The notes under the pieces were generated by a model. The model worked only from the letters and a program-made list of their open reading frames with translations, did not search any database and was not told the origin of the DNA. A program made the translations under genes and the position numbers. From a virus (lineage: Duplodnaviria; Caudoviricetes): DNA of 58,171 nt. Every line of letters starts with the position of its first letter. The first letter of the stretch is position 1. Of the stretch, positions 607 to 33,493 are shown one piece after another. The stretch is taken from positions 1 through 58,171 of the IMG/VR virus record IMGVR_UViG_3300050131_000113; one strand, 5' to 3'.

Positions 607-1508
607 CGCGCGACCTCCGGCATTTCGTTGTATTCGACGCCGTCGAGAAGGCGGCCGGCGGATTTCTTGCCCATGTTGAATGTGAAGACGGTGCGCGGTG
701 GATCGGCGACGTCCGTGTCGATCACATAGCGACCGTCCCTATCGACTACGGCATGCTTGCTTGCACCACGAATGATTCCGCCATTCGGGAATTGGTCGAT
801 CGGCTTCCAGTTTCCCCATTGCTTCATGAAAAACGAAACGCCAGCCGTGGCACACTGATCGCGCAGGGAGCGATACCAGTCGGGATGGGACGGCCGCGCA
901 TTGAGCCCGGATTCGCCGCCGGCTATCACCCAGTCGATTTCAGGCGGGGGCGCCATGAACTGCTTTCGCCAGACCTTTTTGCCGCCAGCCCGCCACAGAT
1001 GGAGTGGCCCCGATCCCTTGTAATGGGTGCCGCAGCACGTGAGATCGATCGGCCCCAGTAGCGGCTCGGCCGAGATGAACCGGACTGCCGCCGGCGTCTG
1101 CAACAGCAGTGGGATCCGTTCGTCGGCCTCCTGCTGGCGTTCGGCAGAGACGCCGAGCCAGACGTTCGGAAGAATCATGATCCGGTCTTCTTGGCTTTCT
1201 ACCTTCAAGAGATAATCGCGCATTCGTTTGCCGCGCTTAGTCAGCACTTGGAAGGTATGCTGCGGCGTCCGTTCCATGATGGTAAAAATCTCATCGATCC
1301 ACTCGTCGGGGACGAAGTCCGCAAACAAGTCCGTCATGCTGCAAACGAAGATCATCCGCGGCTTTTTCCAGCGCAGCGGCAGGGTCAGCATTTCTTCGTC
1401 GATGAAGATTTCGACGTAGTGCCATCCGACCTTGCCAGTTTTCTTGTTGCGGGCGCGGATCGGTGTCCAACTGGCGTCGGTCCACTCGATTTTGGATTTA
1501 TCCGCCAT
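603..1508 (-). CDS. DUF5131 (gp37/gp68-like) protein, apparently lacking the N-terminal Cys motif
   Basis: MADKSKIEWTD, IFVCSMTDLF, LTKR, RFISAEPLLG, WVIAGGESG, FFMKQWG, GRLLDG motifs. Confidence 0.85.
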   Translation of the reverse strand: MADKSKIEWTDASWTPIRARNKKTGKVGWHYVEIFIDEEMLTLPLRWKKPRMIFVCSMTDLFADFVPDEWIDEIFTIMERTPQHTFQVLTKRGKRMRDYLLKVESQEDRIMILPNVWLGVSAERQQEADERIPLLLQTPAAVRFISAEPLLGPIDLTCCGTHYKGSGPLHLWRAGGKKVWRKQFMAPPPEIDWVIAGGESGLNARPSHPDWYRSLRDQCATAGVSFFMKQWGNWKPIDQFPNGGIIRGASKHAVVDRDGRYVIDTDVADPPRTVFTFNMGKKSAGRLLDGVEYNEMPEVAR

Positions 1509-1621
1509 GCTCGCCTCCGCAAAGAGTGGCGTCCGCGCCATCGGGCCGTTCACCTGGCAACAGCGCGGACGCAATCGGCGCGGGAAGCCCTCCGGCGCCG
1601 GGTTGGGTTTCGGGCAGGGAA

Positions 1622-1760
1622 GCAGGATGGTTCAATCGAGCGGCGGGGTCGCGGGGGGTGAGTGCGATCACCGTTTCAGAATCACTTGCTGCCGCGCGCT
1701 CACTGACAGGGTGATCGCACACTGTTGCAGCGGCAGCATTGGTTGATTGAAACAAATCTT
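1622..1760. repeat. dispersed element, inward-facing pair of arms
   Basis: TTCAATC-N24-GTGCGATCACC on both strands; colinear with 18520-18659. Confidence 0.75.
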
Positions 1761-2844: not shown

Positions 2845-2860
2845 ACCGACAGCCCTCCGC

Positions 2861-2917: not shown

Positions 2918-2920
2918 CCC

Positions 2921-4060
2921 TCATGCCGCCTCACTCCCTTTTGTTACTGGATTGTCGTCGTCTGTGGTGTCGGGTTCGATGATCTCGCCGGTTTCGGAAT
3001 CGTGTGGCGGGAGTTTGAATTCGAGTTCGTTCCCCCACGTCATCCAGCCGGGCCGTTCGCGCCGCGCGTAAAGCTCGAGATAGGGGCCGGGCACCAGATG
3101 CTCGATCCGGTCGTGGATCTCATCGGGCTTGCGGGAATGATCCATCACGGGAGCGACCAGAAACTGCCGCACATCGGCGTAAAGCCGTTTGGGATGGCCG
3201 CGCGTGGCGAGCCAGCAATCTTCCGGATTAGCGCGGGTCCAGTAGCCTTGGCCCATGAACCAGCCCTCGCCCAGCCGGTTTTCCTTAGCCCAGGTGAACG
3301 CCGTAGTCTGGTGCTGGAATCCCCACGCTTCGATCAGCGCCAGCGCATCGCCGGGGCACCAATCGACCATCCACATGAACAGCACGCAATCCGGCGCGGC
3401 GAGCTGCTCGACCGGCAGCTCCATGATCTCTTCGATTCCTTCGGTCTTGTAATGGAGGTTCGCCGAACGGCCCTCGCCAGCGGCGGACCGGGTTTTGAAT
3501 TTCCACGGCGGGTCGGCCAGGATCGCGCCGGCCTTGTAGCCGGACGCGATCAGGGTTCGCAGATCGTCAACCGTGCCGCCCTGCAGCGCGCGGTCGGCAT
3601 GATCGGAGCGGCGCTTGGCGTCGGCGTGTTCCTTCAGAAGATTGACCGAGACGTGTTTGGCCGATTTTTCCTGCAATTCGCGCCAGCGCGCCACCAGACG
3701 GTCGAAGCTATTCGGCTCGATATTGGCTAGTTGCTCGCAACGACGCGACGAATGCTCGTCGATGTCCATATCGCTCAGCTTGATCTTGGAAACCGCCGCA
3801 TCCGATGCGGAGGTTTTTACCGGCCGGCCGCCCTCGTGAAGCTCGCCAGAGGCGCGCAAATCCTTCTTGATCTCGCCAATTCGCCGCTCAGCGCGGAAGC
3901 GGATTTCGGCCATGGAAATCTCGGCTTCGCGATTTTTGGCCTGCCGCCAGTATAGGCGCAGCGCATCAGCCTTGTTGCGGATGTCCTTGACCTCATCGAC
4001 CGCCTTCGCTTCAGCGATGGCGCGGCAGGCGGCGTCGTATTTGAGGATGGCGGTCGTCAT
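2921..4060 (-). CDS. MT-A70 family N6-adenine DNA methyltransferase
   Basis: ILADPPW, LFMW, WGF..TTAFTWAK, HSRKP, LELYAR, WGNE motifs; N-terminal helical extension. Confidence 0.9.
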   Translation of the reverse strand: MTTAILKYDAACRAIAEAKAVDEVKDIRNKADALRLYWRQAKNREAEISMAEIRFRAERRIGEIKKDLRASGELHEGGRPVKTSASDAAVSKIKLSDMDIDEHSSRRCEQLANIEPNSFDRLVARWRELQEKSAKHVSVNLLKEHADAKRRSDHADRALQGGTVDDLRTLIASGYKAGAILADPPWKFKTRSAAGEGRSANLHYKTEGIEEIMELPVEQLAAPDCVLFMWMVDWCPGDALALIEAWGFQHQTTAFTWAKENRLGEGWFMGQGYWTRANPEDCWLATRGHPKRLYADVRQFLVAPVMDHSRKPDEIHDRIEHLVPGPYLELYARRERPGWMTWGNELEFKLPPHDSETGEIIEPDTTDDDNPVTKGSEAA

Positions 4061-4287
4061 CGCATCCCCCAAACCCGCTTCAACGCCCGCCCGATCTCGC
4101 GTCTCCGTTTCCAGCAGATCCAGGCAAACCATGGCCAGACGACAATCATCGCCAGCGAAGCCCGGAATCCCCAGAACAGCGACGTCGAACCGCGGCGCGC
4201 GAAGCTCTTGGCCACCACCCCGGTCGGGATCAGCACGAAACACCAGAACGCCATGCCGATCGCTGTGTAGATCAGCGCGGCCAGCAT
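4057..4287 (-). CDS. small membrane protein
   Basis: Two hydrophobic segments; start uncertain. Confidence 0.5.
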   Translation of the reverse strand: MLAALIYTAIGMAFWCFVLIPTGVVAKSFARRGSTSLFWGFRASLAMIVVWPWFAWICWKRRREIGRALKRVWGMR

Positions 4288-4428: not shown

Positions 4429-4696
4429 TAGGTTTGATTCAGCGCGACACTTGCGGTCGCTTCTGGTTAGGAGAAGTCAGGCGGCAGGGTCGCGGGCATC
4501 AGCAATTCGAACTTTGCCGAGATCGAAATCCCAAACCATCTGCCCGCGCGAAAACGCGGGCAGTTGCCGGCGGTAGCTGAGCGCGCGCAACAGTTGCGCG
4601 ATGATGAACGGATCGCCTTTGGCTGGCGCAGTATCCCCCACCGATTCCTGACTTGATGGTGCCGACGCTTGCGCAGTGCCGATGTGAATCATATTC
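4429..4696. repeat. dispersed element, inward-facing pair of arms around ~160 bp
   Basis: Plus arm 4429-4487 TAGGTTTGATTCAGCGCG-N24-GAGAAGTCAG; minus arm 4647-4696 TGATTCA-N33-TCAG. Confidence 0.7.
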
Positions 4697-4698
4697 AT
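4477..4698 (-). CDS. hypothetical protein spanning the repeat pair
   Basis: ORF with AGGAG upstream. Confidence 0.4.
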   Translation of the reverse strand: MNMIHIGTAQASAPSSQESVGDTAPAKGDPFIIAQLLRALSYRRQLPAFSRGQMVWDFDLGKVRIADARDPAA

Positions 4699-4959: not shown

Positions 4960-5137
4960 GACACACTCTCCGCAACGCAACACAACACAGTCGTTAACTT
5001 TCCCTGAATCGCTGCGCCGCACAGGCGCGGTAACTGCACAAAATAATTGCGGTGCGCTCGCGCAAAAGGTGTGCAATCTTGCAGACACACTTTTGCGGGG
5101 TCGAGTTCATGGGCAAGGTTGTTCGGTTTCCGGGGCG

Positions 5138-5368: not shown

Positions 5369-5453
5369 GGAATCACCATACCCACTTTTAGGTAGAATTC
5401 AACCTAGAACTCTGTCGGAGACCGATAACCTAGAATTCGGTAGAATTCTTGGC
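5369..5453. promoter_or_regulatory. divergent cro/cI promoters and operators
   Basis: Operators TACCCACTTTTAGGTA (5379-5394) and AACCTAGAATTCGGTA (5427-5442); minus-strand TTGAAT-N16-TATGGT; plus-strand -10 TAGAAT at 5441-5446. Confidence 0.75.
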
Positions 5454-5798
5454 ATGGCGGACACCTCTCCCAAGGGCATTGGAAAACGCATCCGCGCGAG
5501 GCGCATCAAGCTCGGCTTGAGCCAGCCTAAGCTCGCGAAAATACTAGGTATTCCGCAGCAGACCATCGGTGGATGGGAAACCGGCAAAGCCGCCCGCCCC
5601 CGTTACCTTCCGGAAGCCGCAAAAGCGCTGTGCACAACTCAAGAATGGCTTCTCAGGGAAGAGGGCCCCGAGGAGATGGTTCCAGCCGTCTCAAAGCAGC
5701 AAATCGCGATGGCGGTCGAATCACTTCACCCTAAATTGGTGCCGGCAGCGCTAGAATTCCTCAGAAACCTCGCTGAATCCGATACCGAGGCGGCCTAA
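5454..5798 (+). CDS. cI: CI-like XRE-family repressor without an S24 peptidase domain
   Basis: IGKRIRARRIKLGLSQPKLAKILGIPQQTIGGWETGK HTH; 114 aa. Confidence 0.8.
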   Translation: MADTSPKGIGKRIRARRIKLGLSQPKLAKILGIPQQTIGGWETGKAARPRYLPEAAKALCTTQEWLLREEGPEEMVPAVSKQQIAMAVESLHPKLVPAALEFLRNLAESDTEAA

Positions 5799-6873: not shown

Positions 6874-7662
6874 ATGCTTGCCGTAGCAGAACAGTCAGCC
6901 GAAACCAGACCGCCGCGCCGCGCTGTAGCCAAGGTGTCGCAGTCGCTAAACCCAATGACCGTGGTTGATCGCGCGATTGATCGTGGTCTGACCGGCCAGG
7001 ATCTCAAGGAGATCATGGACCTGCAGGAGCGCTGGGAAGCCGGTCAGGCGCTCAAGGCCTTCGATATCGCGATGGCCAATGCGCAGGCCGAGATTCCGAC
7101 CATCATCAAAAACCGCCTTGTCAACTTCGACGGCAAGAACGGTAGCCGCTCGACCAACTACAAACACGAAGATTTGGCCGAGATCGTCGAAACCATCCGC
7201 CCGATCCTGCACAAGCATGGCCTTGGCCATCGCTTTCGGACCACGCAGAACATCGAAACCGGCCTGATCACGGTGACATGCGTCATTACCGGCCACGGTC
7301 ACCGCGAGGAAACCTCGCTTTCTTCGAAGCCGGACTCCAATTCGAGCGGTATGAACGATCTGCAGCGTATCGCGTCCGCCACGACCTATCTACAGCGCTA
7401 CACGCTCAAGCCCGCACTTGGTCTGGCCGTGGCTCATGATGATGATGGGCGAGGGGCCGGCGCCAAGGTGGTCGAGGCAACTGCCCTGCCCGGCACCATC
7501 AGCGCCGCCCAGGCGTCCGAAATCCGCAAGATGCTCGATGATCGCGGCATCAACGAAAAGGCGTTCCTGCAATTCGTGAAACTGCCCCGCGTCGAGGATA
7601 TCGGCGTCGAGCACTTCGACCGCGCAATCGCCAAGATCAAGAGTGTGGGGCCGAAATCATGA
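6874..7662 (+). CDS. erf: Erf-family ssDNA annealing protein
   Basis: SATTYLQRYTLKPALGLAVAHDDDG Erf motif. Confidence 0.9.
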   Translation: MLAVAEQSAETRPPRRAVAKVSQSLNPMTVVDRAIDRGLTGQDLKEIMDLQERWEAGQALKAFDIAMANAQAEIPTIIKNRLVNFDGKNGSRSTNYKHEDLAEIVETIRPILHKHGLGHRFRTTQNIETGLITVTCVITGHGHREETSLSSKPDSNSSGMNDLQRIASATTYLQRYTLKPALGLAVAHDDDGRGAGAKVVEATALPGTISAAQASEIRKMLDDRGINEKAFLQFVKLPRVEDIGVEHFDRAIAKIKSVGPKS

Positions 7663-8663
7663 TCGACCAGACAAACCACAACCACCTCGCCGCCCAATTT
7701 ACCGCCCGCATCGCGGAACAAGCCGCGACCGCCGCCACGGTCAACCATGGAGCCAAAGTCATGACCGGAATCGAAATCTTCAACTGCGAGCAAAACTCGC
7801 CCGCATGGCATCTGGCCCGCAAGGGCATTGCGACCGCATCGGCTTTTGGCGACGTACTTGCCAAGGGCGAGGGCAAGACGCGGCGGACATATCTGCTCAA
7901 GCTGGCCGGCGAGATCATTACCGGCCAGCCGATGGAATGTTTCGTCAGCAGGGACATGGAACGCGGCCACGCGATGGAAGCCGAGGCCCGTGACCTCTAC
8001 ACGCTCAAGACAGACGCTCAACTGGCCCAGGTCGGTTTCGTTCGCAACGGCCGCGTCGGCTGCTCGCCGGACTCCCTAATTGGGGACGACGGCGGCCTGG
8101 AGATCAAGACTAAGTTCCCGCACCTGTTGATCGACGTCATCCTGAAGGACGAATTTCCGGCCGAGCACAAGGCCCAGGTGCAGGGCGCACTTTGGGTGAC
8201 CGGGCGGCAATGGTGGGACGTTGCGATCTACTGGCCCGGCCTGCCGCTGTTCGTCAAACGCGCGCATCGGGACGAAGCTTATATTCAGCAGATGGCGACC
8301 GAGGTCGAGCGGTTCAATGCCGACCTTGACGGTGTGGTCTCCGAACTGCGCCGCCGCGAACTCGCGGAAGCGTTGCCGAACAGTTTTGCTTCGCTGGCGG
8401 CCGTCAGCGCCCCGATCGCCGAAACGATTGTGCCGGTGGCCGCCGTTGACGCTCTCGACGAACGCGAACTGCTCGCGGATATCCAGCGCGCCTTCGACCA
8501 ATGCGTCGATTGGACTTCCTTCGGCAAAAAACAGCAGGAACTGATGGCACCGAACAAAAAACGGGTTTCGCCTGCGACTTGGAAGAAAGCAGTCAAACTG
8601 GCAATGGCGTGCGTGATGCGCCTTGCCGAGGAACCCGGCGGCGTGGCCGTGGCGGCAGAGTAG
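7659..8663 (+). CDS. YqaJ/lambda-type exonuclease
   Basis: W..ARKG.ATAS, MERGHAME, GCSPD, LEIK, QVQG motifs. Confidence 0.9.
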   Translation: MIDQTNHNHLAAQFTARIAEQAATAATVNHGAKVMTGIEIFNCEQNSPAWHLARKGIATASAFGDVLAKGEGKTRRTYLLKLAGEIITGQPMECFVSRDMERGHAMEAEARDLYTLKTDAQLAQVGFVRNGRVGCSPDSLIGDDGGLEIKTKFPHLLIDVILKDEFPAEHKAQVQGALWVTGRQWWDVAIYWPGLPLFVKRAHRDEAYIQQMATEVERFNADLDGVVSELRRRELAEALPNSFASLAAVSAPIAETIVPVAAVDALDERELLADIQRAFDQCVDWTSFGKKQQELMAPNKKRVSPATWKKAVKLAMACVMRLAEEPGGVAVAAE

Positions 8664-8743: not shown

Positions 8744-8935
8744 ATGCCCGTTCTTGAAACCATCGACCGTATTTTGGTCATATCGGAAGCCCCGCCGCCG
8801 ATGCTGATCTGCACCGACGCGGATCCGTTCGAAATCGACGATCCCTGCCCGTTCAACGCCAGCGGCCCGCATCGCTTTCTCGCCATCTGCGGCGATGTCG
8901 TCTGCGTGCATTGTGCCAAGGTGATCTGGTCATGA
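8744..8935 (+). CDS. small Zn-binding protein
   Basis: C-P...H...CxxC; coupled to the next gene. Confidence 0.5.
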   Translation: MPVLETIDRILVISEAPPPMLICTDADPFEIDDPCPFNASGPHRFLAICGDVVCVHCAKVIWS

Positions 8936-9934: not shown

Positions 9935-10240
9935 ATGGCTAACCACCCAAACCGCGCCAAGCCCAAAGAACGCGCCGTGATCGTCACGACAGAGCATCGC
10001 GGCGTATTCTTCGGCTATGCCGACGATACGGACGGCGACGTAATCAAACTGCGGGCCGCGCGCAATTGCATCTATTGGTCGAGCGGCGTTCGGGGTTTCA
10101 TGGGCCTCGCCGCAACCGGACCCGATAAGCAATCGAAGGTCGGCCCTGCGGCTGATATCGAGGTTCGCAAGATCACCAGCGTGATCGAATGCACGCCGGA
10201 CGCGGTTGCTGCCTGGGAGGCGCAGCCATGGAACCGGTAA
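9935..10240 (+). CDS. DUF6948-like protein
   Basis: VIVTT..RGVFFG...L..AR..IYW....G..GLA..GP; AGGAG RBS. Confidence 0.7.
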   Translation: MANHPNRAKPKERAVIVTTEHRGVFFGYADDTDGDVIKLRAARNCIYWSSGVRGFMGLAATGPDKQSKVGPAADIEVRKITSVIECTPDAVAAWEAQPWNR

Positions 10241-10911
10241 TTCTTAGAGGCGAGCCGGCGAAGCTGGCGATCCTTTACGGCGACGGCGACGGCTACGGCT
10301 ACGGCTACGGCTACGGCTCCGGCGACGGCTACGGCGACGGCTACGGCTACGGCTACGGCTACGGCTCCGGCGACGGCGACGGCGACGGCTCCGGCTACGG
10401 CGACGGCGACGGCTCCGGCGACGGCTACGGCTACGGCTACGGCTCCGGCTCCGGCGACGGCGACGGCTCCGGCTACGGCTCCGGCTCCGGCTCCGGCGAC
10501 GGCGACGGCTCCGGCTACGGCTCCGGCTACGGCTCCGGCTACGGCTCCGGCTACGGCTCCGGCTCCTATTGGCAAGCCACTATTATTAACTTCGCGGCCA
10601 AGTGGCCTCAAGGTCAGCGGGATAGGCTTGAGGCCGCGAAGTTAGAGGGCGCAACGATCGCCTTTTGGCGATCGAGCCAGCAAGGTATGCCGTCCAACGG
10701 CGGAAAGAAGATCGAGCCCGCGGCGCCTGGGGTTATCCATATCTCGCCAGGCCCGCTGCAAACTTGTTACAGCGGCACGCTGCACGCCACGCTGATCCCG
10801 TCGAAGTGGGAAGGCGCGCGATGGTGGATCGTGGCACTTCACGGTGAGGTTGTCGGCGACGAAGAAAAGTATGGTTGCCTGAAACGCGAGATTTTGGGTG
10901 AGGCGCTATGA
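10228..10911 (+). CDS. Gly-X repeat protein with a C-terminal globular domain
   Basis: About 95 residues of G-Y/G-D/G-S repeats. Confidence 0.7.
   Translation: MEPVILRGEPAKLAILYGDGDGYGYGYGYGSGDGYGDGYGYGYGYGSGDGDGDGSGYGDGDGSGDGYGYGYGSGSGDGDGSGYGSGSGSGDGDGSGYGSGYGSGYGSGYGSGSYWQATIINFAAKWPQGQRDRLEAAKLEGATIAFWRSSQQGMPSNGGKKIEPAAPGVIHISPGPLQTCYSGTLHATLIPSKWEGARWWIVALHGEVVGDEEKYGCLKREILGEAL
10276..10566 (+). repeat. hexamer low-complexity repeat (GGC-GAC/TAC/TCC)n
   Basis: Directly visible. Confidence 0.95.
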
Positions 10912-18357: not shown

Positions 18358-18494
18358 TATGCCAGCCCGAATAGCCTGACCAGCGCGCGGGTGATTTGGG
18401 TTATCAGGAACAGACCGAATCCCCAACCCATCGCAGCGCCGAACGCCGCAAGAAAAAAAGCGCAACAGGTCTGCCATGTGCATGATACGGGCAT
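18357..18494 (-). CDS. 45-aa membrane protein
   Basis: FFLAAFGAAMGWGFGLFLI; GGAG upstream. Confidence 0.5.
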   Translation of the reverse strand: MPVSCTWQTCCAFFLAAFGAAMGWGFGLFLITQITRALVRLFGLA

Positions 18495-18519
18495 CACAGG
18501 GGGCTCCGGGTTGAAGTTT

Positions 18520-18659
18520 TAGATTTGATTCAATCAACAGCATGCGCGCTGACAGCGAGTGCGATCACCATTTCAGGGTCGCTTGCTAAAGCAGGCTCAA
18601 GCGTTGCCTGACTTCTCCGCTCATAAAGCGAGATGCGCTGTCGCGCTGAAACAGACCTA
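18520..18659. repeat. dispersed element, inward-facing 'empty' pair
   Basis: TAGATTTGATTCA...TGAAACAGACCTA ends; colinear with 1622-1760. Confidence 0.8.
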
Positions 18660-18821
18660 CAATCGACCGAGCAGCAGCAAGATCACAAGCACCACCACGA
18701 TCAGCCCCAAGCCCCCGCCGCCATAATATCCGGTGCCGTAGAACGGCCCGCCCCCGACGCCGGAGAAGCCGCCGAGCAAACAGATCACGAGAATGATCAG
18801 GATGATGGTTCCGAGTGACAT
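18657..18821 (-). CDS. DUF3309 family membrane protein
   Basis: MSLGTIILIILVICLLGGFSG...YYGGGGLGLIVVVLVILLLLGRL. Confidence 0.8.
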   Translation of the reverse strand: MSLGTIILIILVICLLGGFSGVGGGPFYGTGYYGGGGLGLIVVVLVILLLLGRL

Positions 18822-18823
18822 AT

Positions 18824-18994
18824 TCAGTCTCCTTCTTCTTCAATCGTGATGCGATAGGTTTTGCCGTCCTTGAGCTCGCCGATTTGTTTCGGGATCTCGC
18901 CCATCAGGTGGCCCGGAAGCGGATCGAATTTCAAAAGCACCATGGATGCGCCGTTTTTGGAGACGACGGCGGCGCAGCGGGCGCTGAATTGCAT
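18824..18994 (-). CDS. 56-aa hypothetical protein
   Basis: MQFSARC...GKTYRITIEE; fills the gap between genes. Confidence 0.5.
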   Translation of the reverse strand: MQFSARCAAVVSKNGASMVLLKFDPLPGHLMGEIPKQIGELKDGKTYRITIEEEGD

Positions 18995-18996
18995 CG

Positions 18997-19332
18997 TCAG
19001 TGTTTCGGCACGTTCGACAGCCGCAATTCAGCGACACCCTGGCTGATGTACTTCACGTCGCCGCTCATCGATACGATCTGGCGATCGAGGCTGTTGATCT
19101 GTTCTTCCATCGCCTTGTTGCTGGTACGAAGGTCGGCAATTGTTTCTGCAAAGCGGTGACCGTCTTCGCGAAGCGAATTTAGCTCTGAACTCAGGTAGCG
19201 CTCGCCAGTGATGAACCCGCCGATAAAAACGAATACGCTGATGATCGATGCTACTGCGCCGGCAATCGAGATGACCTGCCGCAGTTTAATGCGAATCGAC
19301 GAGACGCCTTCCTTGTCGGTTTCCATCGTCAT
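18997..19332 (-). CDS. TM plus coiled-coil protein (lysis region)
   Basis: One TM helix then heptad repeats. Confidence 0.6.
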   Translation of the reverse strand: MTMETDKEGVSSIRIKLRQVISIAGAVASIISVFVFIGGFITGERYLSSELNSLREDGHRFAETIADLRTSNKAMEEQINSLDRQIVSMSGDVKYISQGVAELRLSNVPKH

Positions 19333-19589
19333 GGCGGCGCGGCCCTCGCACAATTGTCGATGGTCTCGCGCTGCTTTGGCGTCGATTCCCTCAGTGCCCG
19401 CTCAAGGTTCTTGGGGTCGAGTACCTTGATGGATTCGTTGATGCGGTCGCAGTTCGGCGGCTCGACAGCCGGTTCGGTTCCCTGATGTCGGCGATGAACG
19501 CGGTAATGAGGTTCCCACGGCCAATGAAATGCCGACGCCTCAGAGGGAGATGCGATCATTAAAATTAAAAGTGCCGCCATAATCCTCAT
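19329..19589 (-). CDS. small exported protein
   Basis: Signal peptide MRIMAALLILMIASPSEASA; Cys pair. Confidence 0.55.
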   Translation of the reverse strand: MRIMAALLILMIASPSEASAFHWPWEPHYRVHRRHQGTEPAVEPPNCDRINESIKVLDPKNLERALRESTPKQRETIDNCARAAPP

Positions 19590-19614
19590 TGTGCAGCGCC
19601 TCGGGGCCAATCGG

Positions 19615-19872
19615 TCATTGGTTTACCTCATGCATGGGCGGCGCCCACGGCTCCCGTTTCAAATCCGCGAGAATCCCAACCCGCCGCTCGATCCGTTCCA
19701 GCGCCTGAAACAACGGCATGTAAGCGAGCCGCAATCGCAACCGGATGATATCCGAGACGCCCTCATAATATATTGCCGCGATCGAACCGTTGGAGCGCGG
19801 CGGGATGCACCCCAGCCGCCAGTCGGTCAGGGCCTCGGCCACCTCCTGCCGAAATTGTTCTCGCGCTGTCAT
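19615..19872 (-). CDS. hypothetical protein
   Basis: ATGA overlap. Confidence 0.45.
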   Translation of the reverse strand: MTAREQFRQEVAEALTDWRLGCIPPRSNGSIAAIYYEGVSDIIRLRLRLAYMPLFQALERIERRVGILADLKREPWAPPMHEVNQ

Positions 19873-20231
19873 TTCCTCGGCAGGCCATCCACCTGGACCT
19901 GCAAATGGTCCAGTTGTTTCGCCGTGTTGTTCACTTGAACCGATAGCCCGCTTTGAATTGCATTCGCGGTGGCCTGCGCATCGACCATCTTTCCGATCTG
20001 TAGCCAGACTTTGCTCTGGCCGTCTTTTACTTCAGCCAATCCATCCCGTTGCCCCGCCTTCAGATCGTTGATGACCCAACCTAGTCCGCCCAACGCGACC
20101 GTGATGAGAAAGGGCATGACGAACCGCGCGACCGAGATCATAACCGTGCTGTCGATTATCTTGCGGAACGGGGCCTCGCTGGACGGCACATTTACGGTAT
20201 CGCGTGGTTGATGTTCTGGCAGTCCATCCAT
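19869..20231 (-). CDS. TM plus coiled-coil protein (lysis region)
   Basis: One TM helix then a coiled coil. Confidence 0.6.
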   Translation of the reverse strand: MDGLPEHQPRDTVNVPSSEAPFRKIIDSTVMISVARFVMPFLITVALGGLGWVINDLKAGQRDGLAEVKDGQSKVWLQIGKMVDAQATANAIQSGLSVQVNNTAKQLDHLQVQVDGLPRK

Positions 20232-20249
20232 TCCGACATTCCCATTTCC

Positions 20250-20293
20250 AAAAGAGAGACAAAGGCCCGGCGCGCGTGATGGCGGCCGGGCCT
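20250..20293 (-). terminator. intrinsic terminator after the OMP gene
   Basis: AGGCCCGGC...GCCGGGCCT followed by a T-rich tail. Confidence 0.55.
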
Positions 20294-20304
20294 GATATCT
20301 GCGA

Positions 20305-21015
20305 TCAGTATTTGAACGCCACACCCACCCGCGCCTGGTTGCCGAGCCGCGCGCAGGTAGTGCCGCCGCCAGGGCAGAACGATTGCGAATTCATCTGCCA
20401 GCCGGCCCAGGTATCGACCATGACGTTGTTGGAGAGGCGCGTCAGAAGGCCCAGGCCGACGAGGGGCGCCACTACCCACTGATGGCCGGAGAACACACCG
20501 ATCTGGGCGCCGATGTCCTGTTCGACCAGGCCAGCGAAGGCGTAGCCATTGCCCGGGCTCGAGGTGATGCCGGCGGGGAGCAGCGGGATCGATGGCAGCG
20601 CCGGGTTGGTGGATGCCGGCAAAATGCTGCCGAGCAGACTGTTGATGGGCGAGCCCGCGCCGGCGCGTTCGATGAATAGACCGGGACCGGACAGGGCAAA
20701 CCCGTTGGTCGAGCCATTGAGGTTGGAGAAACCGCCTTGGCCTTCAACAAACCAGAACGCATTGACCGCGAATGGGCAGGTATAGCCGACGATGGCATCG
20801 ATATCGCCCTGCACGATCTGGGTTCCAACGGCCGCGCCATTGACGGCGCCCGCGTTGCCGCCGGTGCCGATACCATAATAGATGCCGCAGCGGGTCGGGT
20901 AACCGGCGGTCAACTGGCTGGTGATGGCCTTGGTGGCGAAGTCGGCGGCCTGAGCGGTCGCCGAGATCGCAACAGTGCCCGCGATCAGGGCAAGCAACAT
21001 CGTTCGCATTTTCAT
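20305..21015 (-). CDS. Omp25/RopB-like outer-membrane beta-barrel protein
   Basis: Signal peptide AQA-AD..TKA, GIYYG, VGY, C-terminal RVGVAFKY. Confidence 0.75.
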   Translation of the reverse strand: MKMRTMLLALIAGTVAISATAQAADFATKAITSQLTAGYPTRCGIYYGIGTGGNAGAVNGAAVGTQIVQGDIDAIVGYTCPFAVNAFWFVEGQGGFSNLNGSTNGFALSGPGLFIERAGAGSPINSLLGSILPASTNPALPSIPLLPAGITSSPGNGYAFAGLVEQDIGAQIGVFSGHQWVVAPLVGLGLLTRLSNNVMVDTWAGWQMNSQSFCPGGGTTCARLGNQARVGVAFKY

Positions 21016-21046
21016 GGTGTGGTTCTCCTAGTTGAGGATGGGAAGG

Positions 21047-21103
21047 AAGGTTTGATTCAGCGCGAGAGCGCTGCCCGCTTCAGCAGCGGAGAAGTCAGTC
21101 AGC
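21047..21103 (+). repeat. dispersed element arm flanked by an 11-bp direct repeat
   Basis: AAGGTTTGATTCAGCGCG-N24-GAGAAGTCAG; AGTTGAGGATG at 21030-21040 and 21104-21114. Confidence 0.8.
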
Positions 21104-21115
21104 AGTTGAGGATGT

Positions 21116-21472
21116 CTAAGCGGCGTGAGTGCCTTCGACGCCGCGCGCCATGCGGGCGCGGGTCCGGTGCAGAAGCCAGTGTTGTGCCTCTTCGATCTTG
21201 GTCAGGGCAAGCGCGTTCTCGCGGCAGCCAAATTTGCCTGCCTGAAACGACCGAAGCCGATCGATGACGATCGCCAGCAGTGCTTCCTGCGTCACGCCGT
21301 TGACGCCGTTCTCGGCAATCGGGCCGTTCTGAAAGCTGATGCGGCAGGTCAGCCCCTTCTGCGTTTCGATCATATATTCGTGGTTCGCCCCGCCAGCGCC
21401 GGGATCATCCAGAACGGTGATTTCCAGCAGATCGTTCGCCGGATTTACCTTATGCTCGTTGATAGTACGCAT
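21116..21472 (-). CDS. tad1: Tad1-like anti-defence signalling-molecule sponge
   Basis: GAGGANHEY, ISFQ.G, LL.IV.DRL.SFQAG.F..RENA.ALT..EEA..W...R...R..R.V.GT match the Tad1 pattern as recalled. Confidence 0.8.
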   Translation of the reverse strand: MRTINEHKVNPANDLLEITVLDDPGAGGANHEYMIETQKGLTCRISFQNGPIAENGVNGVTQEALLAIVIDRLRSFQAGKFGCRENALALTKIEEAQHWLLHRTRARMARGVEGTHAA

Positions 21473-21552
21473 TTTTGCAGGCTCCTTTTGAGCAAGCATT
21501 ATGCCGGAAACCGTCCGGCGCGGACGCTTTTACAAATGGTGAAGCATCAAGA

Positions 21553-21609
21553 CTGCGGGGTGACCGATAGGCGCCAACGCTTGCGCGGTGGCGCGTTGAA
21601 CCAGCCCTT
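21553..21609 (-). repeat. dispersed element arm
   Basis: AGGGCTGGTTCAACGCG...GCGCAAGCGT.GGC.CC...TCAC, similar to the 4647-4696 arm. Confidence 0.65.
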
Positions 21610-22000
21610 AAACTGCCCTGGGCATATCCGCGACGTTGGCCTGGATCGCCGCCGGCAGCGTGGCGATGGTCTTCGCGACTTCGGCCGGCTGCAGGGTCAG
21701 ACTTTGCGCTGCGATCTGACTGACCGTCACTTGCGGTAATCCGGCCTGATTGAGTTTTGCCGCCTGTGCCAGCGATTTGGCTTTCAAGACTTCGAGCTGC
21801 GATACCACGATAGCGCGGCCATAACTGTTCCAGAAGGACCATGCGCCGCCCAACGTCGCCATGCCGATCGCGACGAAGGTTTCGGTCTGGCTGCCGTTGA
21901 TAATGCCGTGTGCGGCGGCAGCCGAGCCGAGCGCCATCAGTCCGTTTTTCGCAACACTCGCCGCCAGCGTCAGCATCATGGTCTTGGTCTTGTCGTCCAT
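21608..22000 (-). CDS. putative holin
   Basis: Two N-terminal TM helices; located in the lysis cluster. Confidence 0.55.
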   Translation of the reverse strand: MDDKTKTMMLTLAASVAKNGLMALGSAAAAHGIINGSQTETFVAIGMATLGGAWSFWNSYGRAIVVSQLEVLKAKSLAQAAKLNQAGLPQVTVSQIAAQSLTLQPAEVAKTIATLPAAIQANVADMPRAV

Positions 22001-22045
22001 TTGGATTGTCCCCTGTCAGTGATTGCGGTCGCCCGCGAGTTGAAA

Positions 22046-22303
22046 TCAGCTTTTCGAATTGACGAACGCGGCCATCTTCCGCACCACCGGCAGTATGATC
22101 GAAACATCCGCCGCTCGGGATTTCAGGATCGGCAGCATCTGGTCGATATGTGCCTCGAGCGGTTGCTCCTTGGCCGCGATGGCCTGCAACTTTTCTTCGG
22201 CATCGAGCAACCGCAGCGCGGCCGGCGCCGCCGCATCAATCGCGGTCAGGTCGGATTCCGAAACCCCGTTGAAGCCGAGTATCATGCGAAGCCAGCGGTT
22301 CAT
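22046..22303 (-). CDS. hypothetical protein
   Basis: AGGAG RBS. Confidence 0.55.
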   Translation of the reverse strand: MNRWLRMILGFNGVSESDLTAIDAAAPAALRLLDAEEKLQAIAAKEQPLEAHIDQMLPILKSRAADVSIILPVVRKMAAFVNSKS

Positions 22304-22795: not shown

Positions 22796-22993
22796 TCACT
22801 CCGCGAAAATCTTGTCGACGGCCGCACTCGCCAGAGAATGGGCTTCATCGCGTTTCGACAGGCCTTGCGTGAATTCCTTCACCGCATCGACCGGGGACTG
22901 CTCTTCGATGTTGGAGACCGGCCGCTCATAGAGCCCCTTCAGCCCATCGCCGAAGGCGTCGTCGAGGGCATTTTGGGCGTCGGCGCGTTTCAT
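22796..22993 (-). CDS. hypothetical protein
   Basis: ATGA overlap with the endolysin gene. Confidence 0.45.
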   Translation of the reverse strand: MKRADAQNALDDAFGDGLKGLYERPVSNIEEQSPVDAVKEFTQGLSKRDEAHSLASAAVDKIFAE

Positions 22994-23556
22994 GAGCCCG
23001 ACATCGCAATCGACAGCGACTCGCACCGTTCCGCGCGGCCGATCCAGTCCTTGCCGAAATACTGGAATTTCGACAGATGCCGATACCAGTTTTCCTCGTC
23101 GGAACCGAAGGACTTGATGGCGGCGACGACGTCGGTAGGCGCGATCGATGCTACCGCCGTATCGGTCTGGCCGCCCCATACCCCGTCGATGCCGATGCCG
23201 AGCGCCTGCTGCAGGAGCCGGGTTGCTTCAAGGGGACCGCCGTTGACGGCGATATTGAAGAACGACAGATCGAGTCCAGCCGGAAGGTTTGCACAATGCG
23301 GCAACCAGTATTCCGTCCAGTAGATTTCGTTCTGCTCGTCGGTCGAGATGTTCTTGACCCACTGCAGCGGGAGCGCCTTGGCCCTCCGGTAGCGGTCGTA
23401 TTCCCGCTGGATGATGCCGTGCATAGTCATGCCGCCGGAATCATGAGGGTCGTTGGAATAGCCGCCCTCTTCCTTCAGAATGAAAGGCATGCAGGCGAGG
23501 AAACGCTTGGAAAGAGGCAAAGCGGCAGCGCCCGCGGGCGCGGTTAGGTCGGTCAT
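22990..23556 (-). CDS. endolysin, glycoside hydrolase family 108
   Basis: EGGYSNDPHDSGG.T.HGI; LQQALG...DGVWG..T; FGKDW..R. Confidence 0.9.
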   Translation of the reverse strand: MTDLTAPAGAAALPLSKRFLACMPFILKEEGGYSNDPHDSGGMTMHGIIQREYDRYRRAKALPLQWVKNISTDEQNEIYWTEYWLPHCANLPAGLDLSFFNIAVNGGPLEATRLLQQALGIGIDGVWGGQTDTAVASIAPTDVVAAIKSFGSDEENWYRHLSKFQYFGKDWIGRAERCESLSIAMSGS

Positions 23557-29337: not shown

Positions 29338-31091
29338 CGCTTCACGCTCCAGTTGGTCGTCAGGGCAGACGGTGTGATCGAGGTGCCCGTTAGGTTGCAC
29401 TGCTTAATATTAATGTTGCCGGAAGTCGGATACGGAACGATCGTAAGCATGGCCGTAGGCAGATATCCCGTCGTTCCCGTGGGGTCTCCATTGAACCCAA
29501 TGGTTATGACATCTGTCGTTGCGACGCCCGGCGCCGAAACTATCGTGGCCGAGCCGCACGCACCCGACGAAATCGCCGACGTACCGAGTGTTGCGGTGCC
29601 GCTGGCGATGGTGAGCGTCTGACCGCAGGTACTCGCAAGCTGATGGAGATTTGTCCCGTCGAAATAAAGGTCTGAACTTTGGTACTGTTTACATGCAAGC
29701 GTAGCTGCGCCGTCGATATTACCCGACGAAGGCGTGTACGTAGCAGTGCCCGCTCCTAAATTCTTGACGGTGAAATAGTCGGTCGAGACAAAGCCCGTTA
29801 TGGTGATCGCTGCCGCAACCGGCGAAGCGTTGCTCTCCGTGACCAGCGAGCCCTTGTCGGTCGATGTGATGGTGTCCGTGGTGGCCGTGTTGTTGCGCGC
29901 TGTGACGGCCGCGCTGACAACCACCGCGCCTGTCGTCGGGCTGACTGTGACGCCGATGCCGCCCGTGACGGATGAAACCGCGCCAACGGCACTGATCACG
30001 CCACTCGACGCCGTGATCGATGTCCCATCGACCTGCACAATGCCCTTCTGCGAGGAAGTGGCGAGCTGGATCGCCGGGGCCCCATCGGAGCGCAGGAAAG
30101 TCGTCGCCGAGCCATTGACGGCTGTGGGTCCGGCGGTCGCCGTGGGATTGGCGCCGGACGATCCCGAGCCGCCGCAGACCGCTCCAGTCCCGGAAATTAC
30201 ACCGGATGAATTGACGTTCAAGCATTGCGTCGATCCCGTGATCCACGCCAGCGTCATCGCCGTCGTGGCGTTAAGGCTGTCGATCGTCGGCGCACTTCCA
30301 AACACCGCGTTTCCGGTTCCGGTCTTGGTCGTGAGTGCCGCCAGCAGGTTGGAGCTGGAGGGCGTCCCCAGGAATGTGCCGACGCCCGTACCGAGGCCAG
30401 AGAGACCGGAGAGCGGCAACCCCGTTCCGTTGGTCAGGGTGATCGAGGAAGGTGTGCCGCCCGCACCGTTGAACACGACCGGAGCACCGGCCGAGCCGAT
30501 GTTGTCGGCGAGTGCGGCCGCAACGCCCGTACCGAGGCCAGAGACACTTCCAATCGCCGGCGCACATGTCGAGGCCGAGGCTGCGGTGATCAGACCCTTG
30601 GCGTTGACCGTCAGCGTGATGCAACTGGTGGAACTACCAAACGAGCCGACATTGCTGTTGACGGTCGCAAGCGTGATGGTACCGCCAGAGGAAACGGTCG
30701 CATCCCCCGAGAACAGCGAATTGATGTAGGTCGCGACCTGCGTAAACGTCGCCTTGACGCCGCCGGAGCCTGCGGTCTGCACCACATAGATCAGGTTGGC
30801 GCCGGCAATCGCGCCTGAGGCGGACAGGTTCGATAGCGCGGTGTTGGCGGCGTAGGCGGCCGTGGCGAACGACAGCGCGCCGATCAGCGATAGCGTCGTC
30901 AGGCGTTTATTTCGCAGGATCTGCGCGAGTAGCGCCACCACCAGGCACAGCGATGCTGCGATGAATGCGCATTCCAAAATGCTCAGCACATTGATGCCGT
31001 GCCATGAATGGTTGAGTTCGCATATTTTGGCCGGGCAGCCGCCGCCGAATTCAACCAGATAGTGCATAAAATGCGGGAAATTATCGAACAT
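29334..31091 (-). CDS. tail-fibre-like protein with N-terminal TM and signal sequence
   Basis: KRLTTLSLIGALSFATAAYA; G/S/T-rich shaft with LTVNAKGLITAA; paired Cys. Confidence 0.7.
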   Translation of the reverse strand: MFDNFPHFMHYLVEFGGGCPAKICELNHSWHGINVLSILECAFIAASLCLVVALLAQILRNKRLTTLSLIGALSFATAAYAANTALSNLSASGAIAGANLIYVVQTAGSGGVKATFTQVATYINSLFSGDATVSSGGTITLATVNSNVGSFGSSTSCITLTVNAKGLITAASASTCAPAIGSVSGLGTGVAAALADNIGSAGAPVVFNGAGGTPSSITLTNGTGLPLSGLSGLGTGVGTFLGTPSSSNLLAALTTKTGTGNAVFGSAPTIDSLNATTAMTLAWITGSTQCLNVNSSGVISGTGAVCGGSGSSGANPTATAGPTAVNGSATTFLRSDGAPAIQLATSSQKGIVQVDGTSITASSGVISAVGAVSSVTGGIGVTVSPTTGAVVVSAAVTARNNTATTDTITSTDKGSLVTESNASPVAAAITITGFVSTDYFTVKNLGAGTATYTPSSGNIDGAATLACKQYQSSDLYFDGTNLHQLASTCGQTLTIASGTATLGTSAISSGACGSATIVSAPGVATTDVITIGFNGDPTGTTGYLPTAMLTIVPYPTSGNINIKQCNLTGTSITPSALTTNWSVKR

Positions 31092-31321
31092 CAGCAGCCC
31101 CCCTCAAGACAGAAATGGCTTGAACCGTCTTCAAGCAGCAGGAACGAGGTGCCGTCCTCGAGCAGAAGAGCGCCGGCGATCGGCGGGGGTGCTGTTGCGC
31201 TTGAAATAGGCCCAGTGAGAGTCTTATTCATCCATCCACCCTCGGGGCCGGTCAGGTTTGAAGCCCCCGCCAAGCTGGCGAACAGCATCAGCGCGGTCGC
31301 GATAAAGAGAACCTTGTTCAT
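31091..31321 (-). CDS. small exported tail connector-like protein
   Basis: Signal peptide; LLLEDG repeated twice. Confidence 0.6.
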   Translation of the reverse strand: MNKVLFIATALMLFASLAGASNLTGPEGGWMNKTLTGPISSATAPPPIAGALLLEDGTSFLLLEDGSSHFCLEGGC

Positions 31322-31713
31322 GGCTGCGCGTATCCCTGAACAATCCGCAGCGTCGTCGTGTTGGATGCGGTGATTGCGGCCAGATACGCGGCGGTCTCAT
31401 TGCTGATGTTAAGGGTGACGAACGAATTGCCGGGCAGGCTATAAGTGCCAGCTATAGGTGCCGCGGTGGATGTCGTCTGCGCTGTGGCGGCAGCACTTGA
31501 TGTCGCACCGAAGGCATAAAACGCCTCCTGCGATGTGATATTGTAGACGATAACGACCGGGCCGCAGGTCGAAAGCTGCACATTCGCGCTGCTGCTTGTG
31601 ACCGCCAGCGTACCTCCGGCGCATGCCGAGATGCCGGCCTGTTGCGCCATCGCGCCCGCGGGAAACAACAGGGCAAACGCAAAGCCGATCGCCGCAACAA
31701 GTTTTGCGCGCAT
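31318..31713 (-). CDS. exported beta-sandwich tail-region protein
   Basis: MRAKLVAAIGFAFALLFPAGAMA signal peptide; Cys pair. Confidence 0.65.
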   Translation of the reverse strand: MRAKLVAAIGFAFALLFPAGAMAQQAGISACAGGTLAVTSSSANVQLSTCGPVVIVYNITSQEAFYAFGATSSAAATAQTTSTAAPIAGTYSLPGNSFVTLNISNETAAYLAAITASNTTTLRIVQGYAQP

Positions 31714-31769
31714 GGGGATGTTCTCCAGTCAGGATATTTCAGGGAAAGTTGATAAAAACCGACGCACCG

Positions 31770-32282
31770 TCAGTGCATCGCGACCGTGACGCCGTAGGCG
31801 CAAAATGTGCAGCTACCCGGGCCCAGCGTGATCTGGATGTAATGCCCCGCCGCTACCCCTGGTATGGATACTGTCCCATCGACCGCGGTATTGCTGGTGT
31901 TGCTGGTGGTGACACTCCCGATGGTCGAGACAGGCGAACTACAATTATTCGCGACCGTGCCGCAGTCCTTGACAATGAATTGCAGGCTTCCCGGTGCGGT
32001 TGGAACCGCGGTAACGGCCTCGATACTATCGACCGTGACGGCGACGTGGGTCTTGCAAACCGCAATGGTGCCGGAATTCCCGGAGGTTGCGAACAATGAA
32101 CCGTTGCAGAAGCTTTCCGGGACGTTAGCGGCAGGGATGGCAGCGATGCTGTCGACAACCAGCGCCTCCGAAGCACAATTTGCCGTCGATGTCCCGACCG
32201 GTGCAGTGCGGCATTGCTGGCCTTGGGCCATCGCCGGAGACGCCAGCAGCACCAGACACAGGGCGAGCAGCCATCTCATCAT
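31770..32282 (-). CDS. exported Cys-rich tail-region protein
   Basis: MMRWLLALCLVLLASPAMA signal peptide; 8 Cys in the mature part. Confidence 0.65.
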   Translation of the reverse strand: MMRWLLALCLVLLASPAMAQGQQCRTAPVGTSTANCASEALVVDSIAAIPAANVPESFCNGSLFATSGNSGTIAVCKTHVAVTVDSIEAVTAVPTAPGSLQFIVKDCGTVANNCSSPVSTIGSVTTSNTSNTAVDGTVSIPGVAAGHYIQITLGPGSCTFCAYGVTVAMH

Positions 32283-33493
32283 AGTTTGACGATCGCATTG
32301 AGGAACTGAGACGGCTGCATGTTGTTGTGCGCGCCGCCGCCGGTATTGGTCGATGTCACCACCGCATTACCAGCCGTGATATTGCCAGTCGAAGTCCGGG
32401 CGCCCACGCTCCCGGAGGTTCCTACCAGTTGCCCGTTGCCGCCACCGCCCGCGCCGGATGAAGCGACCCCCGCCGGGTTGTTGACGATGCCGCTATCGCT
32501 CGAGGTGACGGTGAGCGAGATATTACCGCCGTTCGCCGATACGATGCCCGCGGGCGTCTCGGACAGCGCCAACAGATGCGTTTCCTCGCCGACCGTCAGC
32601 CCCATCGTCCGCGCCGTAAGCCCAGAGCCGCTTCCAGCGACCGCCAGCGCACGCCCCAGCATCTTCGGTAGTGTCATCCGGCAGTTCGCGGCCCATGCGG
32701 CTGCAGCAGAGCCCTGCGCTGCCCGCGTCGTCCCAGCACCCGTAGAAGTCAGTAGCGGACAGGTCGTATCGGTGAACGGCGAAGCAAACAGGATATTGAA
32801 CAGCGCCAGGTTGACGGCGGAATTGCTGTTGGAGGATCCGGAAGTCGCGTCCCCGAAGGTACCGTCGTCGAACATCAGCCAGCCGGTCGGCGGCGTCGAG
32901 GCAACCGTCAACCATACGACGCCAGTCGAGGCGGTCCCGTTGTTGATCGATGAATTGGAGGGGTTGAGCAGTTCCCAGCGGGTGTTGGCCGAATTATAGC
33001 GCAACACGATTTCAGCCAAATTGCCCGGGATGTCGCCGACCGCGAGCGCCGATCCGCCGAGCTTGGTGATGGTCCGCGCCGTCAGCCCATTCGGGGCAAA
33101 GGTCGGCGTCGTGGTGGCATTCGAAGCGCTGGCCCGGCCGAAGCACAATTGGCCGTCATTGAGGGTCACGAGCGCCGGGGTATAGGTTGCGGTCAGTGCG
33201 TCTGCGGTGCCCCCGAAGACGGTCCAATTGACCAATCCATCCTGAATCTGCCCAAAAGCGCTATAATCGGTCCGATTTACCGCGTTTTGCACCACTGTAT
33301 GACGAAATCCGGCCATCGGCAGGTTCGCGGACGGTTGACCCTGACCGTCCCGGGTGAGACAATTGCCCAAACCGTTCGCTGCGATGTCGTTGGTATCGGT
33401 ATCCATCCGGGAGGACGAAATATCGAGCCCGGCCGCCTTGTCGGCGACCCAGCTGAAGATTCTGTTAAAACTACCGGAACCGTTCCAACCCAT
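32279..33493 (-). CDS. tail fibre/spike with collar domain (cytoplasmic)
   Basis: MGWNGSGSF..., PTGWLMFDDG, GEETHLL, HNNMQPSQFLNAIVKL. Confidence 0.8.
   Translation of the reverse strand: MGWNGSGSFNRIFSWVADKAAGLDISSSRMDTDTNDIAANGLGNCLTRDGQGQPSANLPMAGFRHTVVQNAVNRTDYSAFGQIQDGLVNWTVFGGTADALTATYTPALVTLNDGQLCFGRASASNATTTPTFAPNGLTARTITKLGGSALAVGDIPGNLAEIVLRYNSANTRWELLNPSNSSINNGTASTGVVWLTVASTPPTGWLMFDDGTFGDATSGSSNSNSAVNLALFNILFASPFTDTTCPLLTSTGAGTTRAAQGSAAAAWAANCRMTLPKMLGRALAVAGSGSGLTARTMGLTVGEETHLLALSETPAGIVSANGGNISLTVTSSDSGIVNNPAGVASSGAGGGGNGQLVGTSGSVGARTSTGNITAGNAVVTSTNTGGGAHNNMQPSQFLNAIVKL

Follow-up and report, generated by a model that had tools for sequence, protein, structure and literature searches.

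Accessory genes with short conserved edges, which are thought to permit shuffling by recombination, are known from the promoter-stem-loop (PeSL) cassettes of T4-type phages and from the "boundary sequences" of lambdoid phages. Here we describe a homologue of the signal sponge Tad1 whose gene lies between two inverted repeat arms in a complete virus record of 58,171 bases (IMG/VR record IMGVR_UViG_3300050131_000113, Caudoviricetes); this whole stretch is called the window below. In the known proteins, glyco-cyclic ADP-ribose (gcADPR) and 2',3'-cGAMP (cyclic GMP-AMP) are bound by F82, N92, R109 and R113 of CbTad1, and cyclic trinucleotides by R90 and T97 (R88 and T95 in CmTad1), which also help to build the hexamer (10.1101/2023.11.15.567273). 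The window protein is an ordinary new member of this very large family; its setting, a recurrent slot bounded by arms, appears to be new as far as we are aware. With modest confidence, we favour the reading that the sponge occupies an accessory slot whose arms provide homology for the exchange of cassettes by recombination and are not the ends of a transposon.

Pieces of the window were found in peat and permafrost metagenome runs from 12 studies. The stretch 20492-21779 recurs without a single difference in a contig from a run of another study, and the Tad1 region is therefore not an assembly artefact of the window record.

Identity of the Tad1 homologue

The initial annotation had named the gene from motifs, and the family call proved correct by sequence, fold and ligand-contact residues: the 118-residue protein almost certainly belongs to the Tad1 family. 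A phmmer search of the PDB sequences gave seven matches at E <= 10, of which six were Tad1 chains (E 1.5e-18 to 1.2e-16, with 1.5e-18 for CmTad1 8kbb and 9e-17 for CbTad1 7uav) and the seventh was 8y6v, "gp184" (E 1.3e-11). By tblastn, 198 GenBank phage records match the protein, and a feature named Tad1 in Bacillus phage SBSphiJ7 is 50% identical over 78% of the query (E 8e-22). Among 6216 candidates in a protein collection, 6215 were relatives at E <= 0.001. The start position is the same in all 80 homologues from other viral contigs, with MR as the usual first residues, and the closest relatives (L065, L005 and L006) have AAAGGAG upstream of Tad1 in common with the window.

The fold was modelled with AlphaFold2 from a 62-row alignment in which the window protein was combined with translations of 61 of the 80 relatives at viral loci. 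The resulting model has a predicted local distance difference test (pLDDT) score of 89.9 and consists of strands followed by helices at residues 62-78 and 84-110; a single-sequence model was poor and unusable (pLDDT 52.5). An N-terminal antiparallel beta-sheet followed by two long helices is the arrangement of Tad1. A Foldseek comparison had been proposed as a check, and all 20 PDB matches at E <= 0.001 were Tad1 chains with template modelling (TM) scores of 0.76-0.84, so the Tad1 fold is present. The best match was CbTad1 (TM 0.84, 38% identity), and the next match in rank had an E value of 0.13.

For the binding residues named above, HMMER alignments place the equivalents of the gcADPR pocket at F76, N86, R103 and R107, which are kept in 62, 62, 61 and 61 of the 62 alignment rows. 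The equivalents of the cyclic-trinucleotide pocket are R84 and T91, which are less conserved (43 and 51 rows). It is quite probable that the window Tad1 binds gcADPR. By homology it would be a hexamer (a trimer of dimers), with six pockets that take up the Thoeris signal gcADPR and probably cyclic dinucleotides, and two further pockets that take up cyclic trinucleotides. Such uptake would keep the effectors of host Thoeris and of the cyclic-oligonucleotide-based antiphage signalling system (CBASS) silent.

Two findings count against this assignment of family and function. The sole Pfam match, to PF24729 (Acb2/Tad1 hairpin), reaches 24.1 bits (E 4e-5) and falls below the cut-off of 27, and the hexamer interface of CmTad1 is partly altered (H98 for M102, H102 for K106 and E94 for Q98). 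We take the first as a near miss of a short model of 58 positions that does not speak against membership; the precomputed table of the protein collection assigns PF24729.3 to the window protein and to all 120 listed relatives. At the interface, R84, T91, K92, E95 and W99 are retained.

Two inverted arms around Tad1

It had further been noted that the gene, with a ribosome-binding site of its own, stands between two inward-facing arms, with a holin-like gene and an outer-membrane-protein-like (OMP-like) gene outside them, and this layout was confirmed. The arms bound a slot of 564 nucleotides (21045-21608) between the lysis genes and the OMP-like gene, and the spacers around Tad1 measure 100 nucleotides below the gene and 135 above it. 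Local alignment of 21040-21115 with the reverse complement of 21550-21615 is collinear over 60 nucleotides at 62% identity, a score reached by one of 2000 shuffles. A hidden Markov model (HMM) of the type-2 module described below, made from six sequences of other phages, matches the right arm at 21608-21554 (minus strand) with 40 bits and E 9e-12, values that are inflated and partly circular because the six sequences were chosen by a 12-mer from this arm. Judged from these alignments, both arms are real, diverged inverted copies of one repeat.

At one stage the right arm was taken for a chance sequence and the repeat copy at 18596-18659 for the true partner of the left arm. This was overturned by comparing the flanks of the closest Tad1 loci. 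One of them, L005, shares a 17-nucleotide string with the upstream spacer of the window and carries, downstream of its Tad1, an inverted sequence that resembles both window arms. Following the string revealed the type-2 module in arm-bearing phages.

In the right arm, CTG replaces the start codon and is followed by 24 codons and a TAA at 21530-21532, 57 nucleotides before the Tad1 ATG; in its sequence the arm looks like a decayed start module. The DNA in common with two arm-less Tad1 relatives (L065 and L006) runs from 21524/21523 to 21125-21130, that is, inside the arms. Tad1 may have arrived with its own ribosome-binding site and a leader of about 50 nucleotides, and would have replaced cargo that was once fused to the start module, which was left as a 24-codon stump.

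A gene-start module in two forms

Copies related to the arms were collected by exact-pattern scans, which are biased towards two fixed blocks, so that the census gives minimum numbers, about 25 modules on about 13 contigs; outside the window, genes were called by a crude heuristic. A scan of the metagenome data for modules yielded just one further contig, with two copies and one weak copy.

The type-1 repeat, to which the left arm belongs, is about 65 nucleotides long and has four copies in the window (52-60 bits, E 1e-15 to 7e-18). All four contain the blocks TTCAGCGCG and GAGAAGTCAG, 24-25 nucleotides apart; the blocks are identical in these copies, which were found without any pattern, and outside them the copies are 42-64% alike. 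In frame the repeat reads (M/L)IQRGTAGASAAEKSG, and in most copies a stop codon ends the ORF at 18-55 codons. An indel of one nucleotide between the blocks breaks the frame in 5 of 15 copies. Since the two blocks then stand in different frames, it seems to be their nucleotide sequence that is conserved.

The type-2 module is made up of a ribosome-binding site and, from a start codon, an in-frame leader of about 17 codons with the consensus M-V/I-H/Q-R/L-x-T-E/A-x-A-S-A-P-I-G-H/Q. Its copies vary at synonymous sites and retain the peptide. Family matches of the proteins that carry it begin only at residue 20 or 25 (Table 1), and the module is therefore a real N-terminus of unrelated proteins. 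To go by these comparisons, the arms are copies of a lineage-specific gene-start module. Apart from the right arm, the type-2 HMM matches the window at 4698-4658 (E 0.002), at copy D of the type-1 repeat (E 0.02) and at 1759-1726 (E 0.03).

Some type-1 copies extend into a conserved stretch of about 120 nucleotides, in frame ...SGISE..AQVIANQKQLAPCPIE. Sites are G001 48947-49070 and 50785-50910, L098, L140, and window 18540-18659 and 1660-1702; in the window the stretch is only partial, below copy B and at 1660-1702. A difference in presence was seen in L094, where a type-1 module and a new ribosome-binding site (3465-3560) separate two genes whose window counterparts overlap (ATGA, 8911-8935) with no module between them. 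The match to a target duplication at this insertion is just 5 of 9.

Two isolated matches were recorded. In G001, a type-2 module (31146-31202, minus strand) lies in frame amid a 1079-codon open reading frame (ORF) at 29481-32720. This ORF could comprise two genes; alternatively, the leader could indicate where one domain ends and another begins. In L152, a 12-mer of the type-2 block with one mismatch (4327, minus strand) lies just downstream of an OMP-like gene without the first block, and may be due to chance.

Recurrence of arm-bounded slots

When both HMMs were run over arm-bearing DNA, the layout of start module, cargo and inverted module was found 7-8 times in six phage contigs, with at least six different cargos (Table 1). 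A second slot is present in the window itself, where a 73-residue ORF (4477..4698, minus strand) begins with a type-2-like module (4658-4698) and ends with a TGA inside the reverse complement of type-1 copy C. A TGA at this place, within the type-1 block read in reverse complement, provides the stop codon of the cargo in three cases. No family was found for the 73-residue cargo, and the ESM Atlas gave no usable match. The slot upstream of the MT-A70 methyltransferase gene holds this ORF in the window, whereas in G001 it holds a 223-residue phrog_37414 protein. Only the upstream type-1 copy is present at the MT-A70 locus of G001. Inverted copies B and A also enclose a block of the window that contains the OMP-like gene and six small ORFs, one of them with DUF3309.

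From the Tad1 arms it had been proposed that other arm-flanked genes are candidates for new inhibitors. Arm-flanked slots with other cargo do exist in related phages, and this part of the proposal stands; the cargo (an Rv2179c-like exonuclease, phrog_37414, and ORFs of 73 and 93 residues) does not consist of known inhibitors.

Tad1 loci in other viruses

Arms are not a feature of Tad1 genes. They are present at 1 of 80 other Tad1 loci (L005) and absent from 79, which limits the proposed link between slot and sponge. None of five whole arm-bearing records encodes Tad1 by a method that finds the window's own gene as a positive control, and all five whole Tad1-bearing records match only the last 75 nucleotides of the query 18500-21200, which are Tad1 itself. 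Similarly, the type-1 repeat was found at 0 of 11 loci with an OMP-like gene. Among the 80 Tad1 loci, a holin-like gene as in the window occurs at one, an endolysin at two and an OMP-like gene at none, and no relative was found in which Tad1 is flanked by this same pair of holin-like and OMP-like genes.

The Tad1 of L005 is 77% identical to that of the window and has both arms, in a different neighbourhood with tRNA-Ser on one side and terminase and portal genes on the other. As a separate observation, four of five close loci that were inspected have a tRNA gene (Ser, Asn, Asp or Met) about 70 to 260 nucleotides upstream of Tad1 (L005 169-256; L008 78-233; L014 3856-3931; L016 3841-3917). L014 comes from the record G010, which carries a provirus classification. 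In the window, an ARAGORN search gave no tRNA gene.

Origin and role of the arms

The favoured explanation is that accessory genes are swapped as cassettes by homologous recombination at the arms, probably by means of the ERF annealing protein and YqaJ-like exonuclease of the phage itself, and that the arms are linkers or scars of this exchange. It is favoured because this recombinase pair is present, because neither transposase nor integrase was found by Pfam among the 66 window proteins scanned, because target duplications are lacking and the copies are old and diverged, and because one slot carries different cargo in two phages. As read from the sequence, the DNA beyond 21045 on one side and 21608 on the other does not form direct repeats. 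Several observations weigh against the explanation. Inverted partners are missing in the available DNA for 4 of 12 type-2 modules (L088, L168, L169 and L170) and for nine type-1 copies (window B and D, two in G001, L090, L091, L094, L098 and L140). The conservation of the blocks across indels points to a function at the DNA or RNA level that a "scar" does not explain, and by the crude gene calls about 11 of 15 type-1 copies run antisense to the genes beside them, a bias for which the explanation does not account either. Identity between the two arms is just 62%, and the type-2 HMM test has the partial circularity noted above. Finally, no joints, deletions, inversions or alternative junctions were found in four metagenome runs, which are available as contigs at low depth. 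The initial annotation had inferred that the element delivers anti-defence cargo. Two real arms around Tad1 and the recurrence of arm-flanked slots agree with this; the scanned proteins, the flanks and the four runs gave no transposase or integrase, target-site duplication or alternative junction that would speak for delivery.

A regulatory role is kept in view because of the conservation of the blocks in nucleotides, the antisense bias and the coupling of sense copies to the next gene. The arms might be working expression signals, in which the sense copy loads ribosomes (as a coupled leader ORF or a fused leader) and the inverted 3' copy, as a convergent small ORF or an antisense start, tunes or insulates the cargo; we consider this unlikely. 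Sense copies do end at the start of the next gene (the TGA of copy D at the DUF7220 ATG, and the ORF at 1755 near the DUF5131 start), the module of L094 brings a new ribosome-binding site between genes that overlap in the window, and the blocks persist across frame-breaking indels. A precedent exists in archaeal viruses, for which regulatory sequences common to anti-defence genes are reported (PMC11065993). On the minus strand of 18400-22100, however, no sigma-70-like promoter or terminator was found, with counts equal to those of shuffles; folding energies are unremarkable (z -0.6 to -1.8), and the right arm has CTG for a start, with Tad1 using its own ribosome-binding site and an ATG 57 nucleotides beyond the stop. 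A structured RNA was rejected, with 0 Rfam matches in the window, an RNAalifold energy of -1.8 kcal/mol and 0 compensatory pairs; the proposed central hairpin of 8 base pairs has no covariation, and its 54% of cells paired is not above shuffles, since 186 of 500 were as high. A sigma-54-type reading of the repeat middle was likewise dropped, as the GG is not conserved by eye. The arms could also be the terminal inverted repeats of a small non-autonomous element like a miniature inverted-repeat transposable element (MITE), moved by an enzyme encoded elsewhere; this reading corresponds to the delivery element of the initial annotation. Inverted arms of 60 nucleotides, with the identity and shuffle result given above, are indeed present; they enclose single genes in six contigs, Tad1 and both arms occur in two unrelated neighbourhoods (window and L005), and the L094 module sits at a site that is empty in the window. 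This origin is improbable all the same, given that ERF/YqaJ are the only recombinases among the 66 window proteins scanned with Pfam, that the slot flanks are not direct repeats, that the window copies have diverged in a way that is unlike recent transposition, that the arms are homologous to real coding N-termini, and that no member was found in one genome each of 185,579 prokaryote species. A host repeat of the repetitive extragenic palindromic (REP) kind was rejected, with 28 pattern matches in the species genomes against about 30 estimated by chance and a best score of 23.7 bits.

That the conserved 17-residue leader is a protein tag, for instance for virion packaging and head-protease cleavage, with the arms as remnants of tagged genes, is very unlikely. 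The leader precedes three unrelated domains as an N-terminal extension, and type-2 copies keep the peptide despite synonymous differences; it also contains T/S-E or A-x-E, which may resemble the head-protease cleavage motifs of T4 and phiKZ. Against a tag, Tad1 does not carry the leader as a fusion, the majority of type-1 copies amount to stumps of 18-55 codons and are often antisense, and no head protease was identified in the window. Least credible, and already disfavoured, is a coincidence of two unrelated GC-rich intergenic stretches around Tad1. Blastn found no match between the two spacers, and the right arm scored only 5-7 bits (E 0.8-2.6) with the type-1 HMM; the pairwise alignment surpasses nearly all shuffles, L085, G001, L141 and L005 have the two blocks at the same distance from each other, and 4427-4698 and five other contigs show the arrangement again.

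A broader version of the recombination slot is doubtful at present: the lineage may have a "plug-in slot" system, in which a start module and an inverted copy bracket single accessory genes and cargo, including Tad1 and the MT-A70-adjacent genes, is exchanged between slots and between phages, with the leader perhaps also marking proteins for a shared fate such as virion packaging or common translational control. If the slot reading is true, the locus would be a concrete case of phages swapping single accessory genes. If the slot truly collects counter-defence genes, the arms would be a cheap sequence handle, or bait, for finding inhibitors. The present cargo list shows no bias towards counter-defence and consists of an exonuclease and several proteins of no known function.

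Neighbouring genes and other features of the window

All confident genes around Tad1 are on the minus strand. Between the endolysin and Tad1 lie three small membrane-like ORFs, the last being the holin-like one; its weak family PF23987 shares one gene call with an OMP homologue in two cases elsewhere. The OMP-like protein has no Pfam match, and one of its homologues is labelled "opacity protein-like surface antigen" by its source. Of 11 related loci, 3 have a homologue of the GH108 endolysin some 0.5 kb upstream of the OMP-like gene, and for this reason the OMP-like gene may be part of the lysis region and not a free accessory gene. An antisense ORF at 21125-21739, from a crude composition-based gene call, was ruled out by a codon-usage model and homology.

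Elsewhere in the window, at least about 21 copies of a 12-nucleotide tandem unit (GGCTAC-type) at 10217-10611, inside the ORF 10189-10911, encode a Gly/Tyr/Asp/Ser-rich repeat protein. Divergent Cro/YdaS-like (5138-5368, minus strand) and XRE-type helix-turn-helix ORFs at 5052-5798 are suggestive of an immunity switch, and the ORFs scanned yielded no integrase. A 658-residue protein in the structural gene block (44091-46067) has a Methyltransf_24 domain and a weak MptE-like match.

Table 1. Slots, module copies, leader-bearing proteins and genes, with their positions where available
Feature	Record	Position	Strand	Remarks
Tad1 homologue	window	21116..21472	-	118 residues; ATG at 21472; coordinates include the stop codon
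GGAG ribosome-binding site	window	21482..21485	-	9 nucleotides before the Tad1 ATG; read from sequence
Left arm, type-1 module copy A	window	21045..21110	+	nhmmer 59.9 bits; antisense to Tad1 and OMP-like gene
Right arm, apparently decayed type-2 module	window	21554..21608	-	pairwise alignment, type-2 HMM
Type-1 copy B	window	18596-18659	-	inverted partner of A across OMP-like block (74 nucleotides, 76%)
Type-1 copy C	window	4427-4488	+	3' end of 73-residue ORF, upstream of methyltransferase
Type-1 copy D	window	2855-2919	-	23-codon ORF; its TGA and the DUF7220 gene's ATG overlap
85-codon ORF	window	1498..1755	-	starts with weak type-2-like module (E 0.03), ends near start of DUF5131 gene
Slot, Tad1 cargo	window	start module 21608, inverted module 21045		
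Slot, 73-residue cargo	window	start module 4698, inverted module 4427		
Slot, 223-residue cargo	G001	start module 37139, inverted module 36450		
Slot, cargo of about 2.5 kb	G001	start module 31202, inverted module 28541		
Slot, 93-residue cargo	L085			both modules present
Slot, exonuclease cargo	L141			both modules present
Slot, cargo of about 0.3 kb	L092			start module present (weak), inverted module present
Slot, Tad1 cargo	L005			both modules present
Type-2 leader protein	L141			208 residues; Rv2179c-like exonuclease match from residue 20
Type-2 leader protein	G001			223 residues; phrog_37414 match from residue 25
Type-2 leader protein	L168			131 residues; phrog_1273 match from residue 25
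Type-2 leader protein	L085			93 residues; no family match
Type-2 leader protein	window	4477-4698	-	73 residues; no family match
ERF single-strand annealing protein and YqaJ-like exonuclease	window	6874..8663	+	PF04404 E 5e-20; PF09588 E 3.5e-20
MT-A70 DNA methyltransferase	window	2921..4243	-	PF05063 E 1e-28; phrog_359 E 4e-78; exactly between inverted copies D and C
GH108 endolysin	window	22990-23556	-	PF05838 E 1e-21
Holin-like gene, upstream of slot	window	21608..22000	-	130 residues; weak PF23987, 22 bits against cut-off of 27
OMP-like gene, downstream of slot	window	20305..21015	-	236 residues; signal-peptide-like N-terminus; 250 homologues

Comparison with known systems

The regulatory sequences of archaeal viruses resemble the arms in that a conserved 5' sequence can serve as bait for anti-defence genes; there the signal is reportedly of the promoter type, whereas no promoter is evident here (PMC11065993). 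With the described Tad1 proteins (SBSphiJ7 Tad1; CbTad1 7UAV/7UAW/8SMD/8KBE-F; CmTad1 8KBB-D), the window protein agrees in length (118 residues against 116-131 modelled residues), in fold (TM 0.84, with 38% identity to CbTad1) and in all six named ligand-contact residues. It differs in three positions of the hexamer interface and in its source, a 58-kb phage from peat metagenomes and not a Bacillus or Clostridium phage. The anti-CBASS sponge Acb2 shares the PF24729 helical hairpin, which forms the cyclic-trinucleotide pocket; no Acb2 chain was among the sequence or fold matches, and the window protein has the beta-sheet domain of Tad1.

The PeSL cassettes and boundary sequences consist of a promoter and a hairpin, whereas the repeat described here is a ribosome-binding site with a coding leader, forms an inverted pair around single genes and gave no promoter match. 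Integron cassettes with their attC sites offer another parallel. No integron integrase was found in the window proteins scanned, and attC core sites were not seen by eye. Both systems have single promoterless genes, interchangeable cargo and a repeat that is imperfect, its ends being conserved and its middle variable; unlike attC, the repeat of the window is homologous to a gene start and stands on both sides of the cargo.

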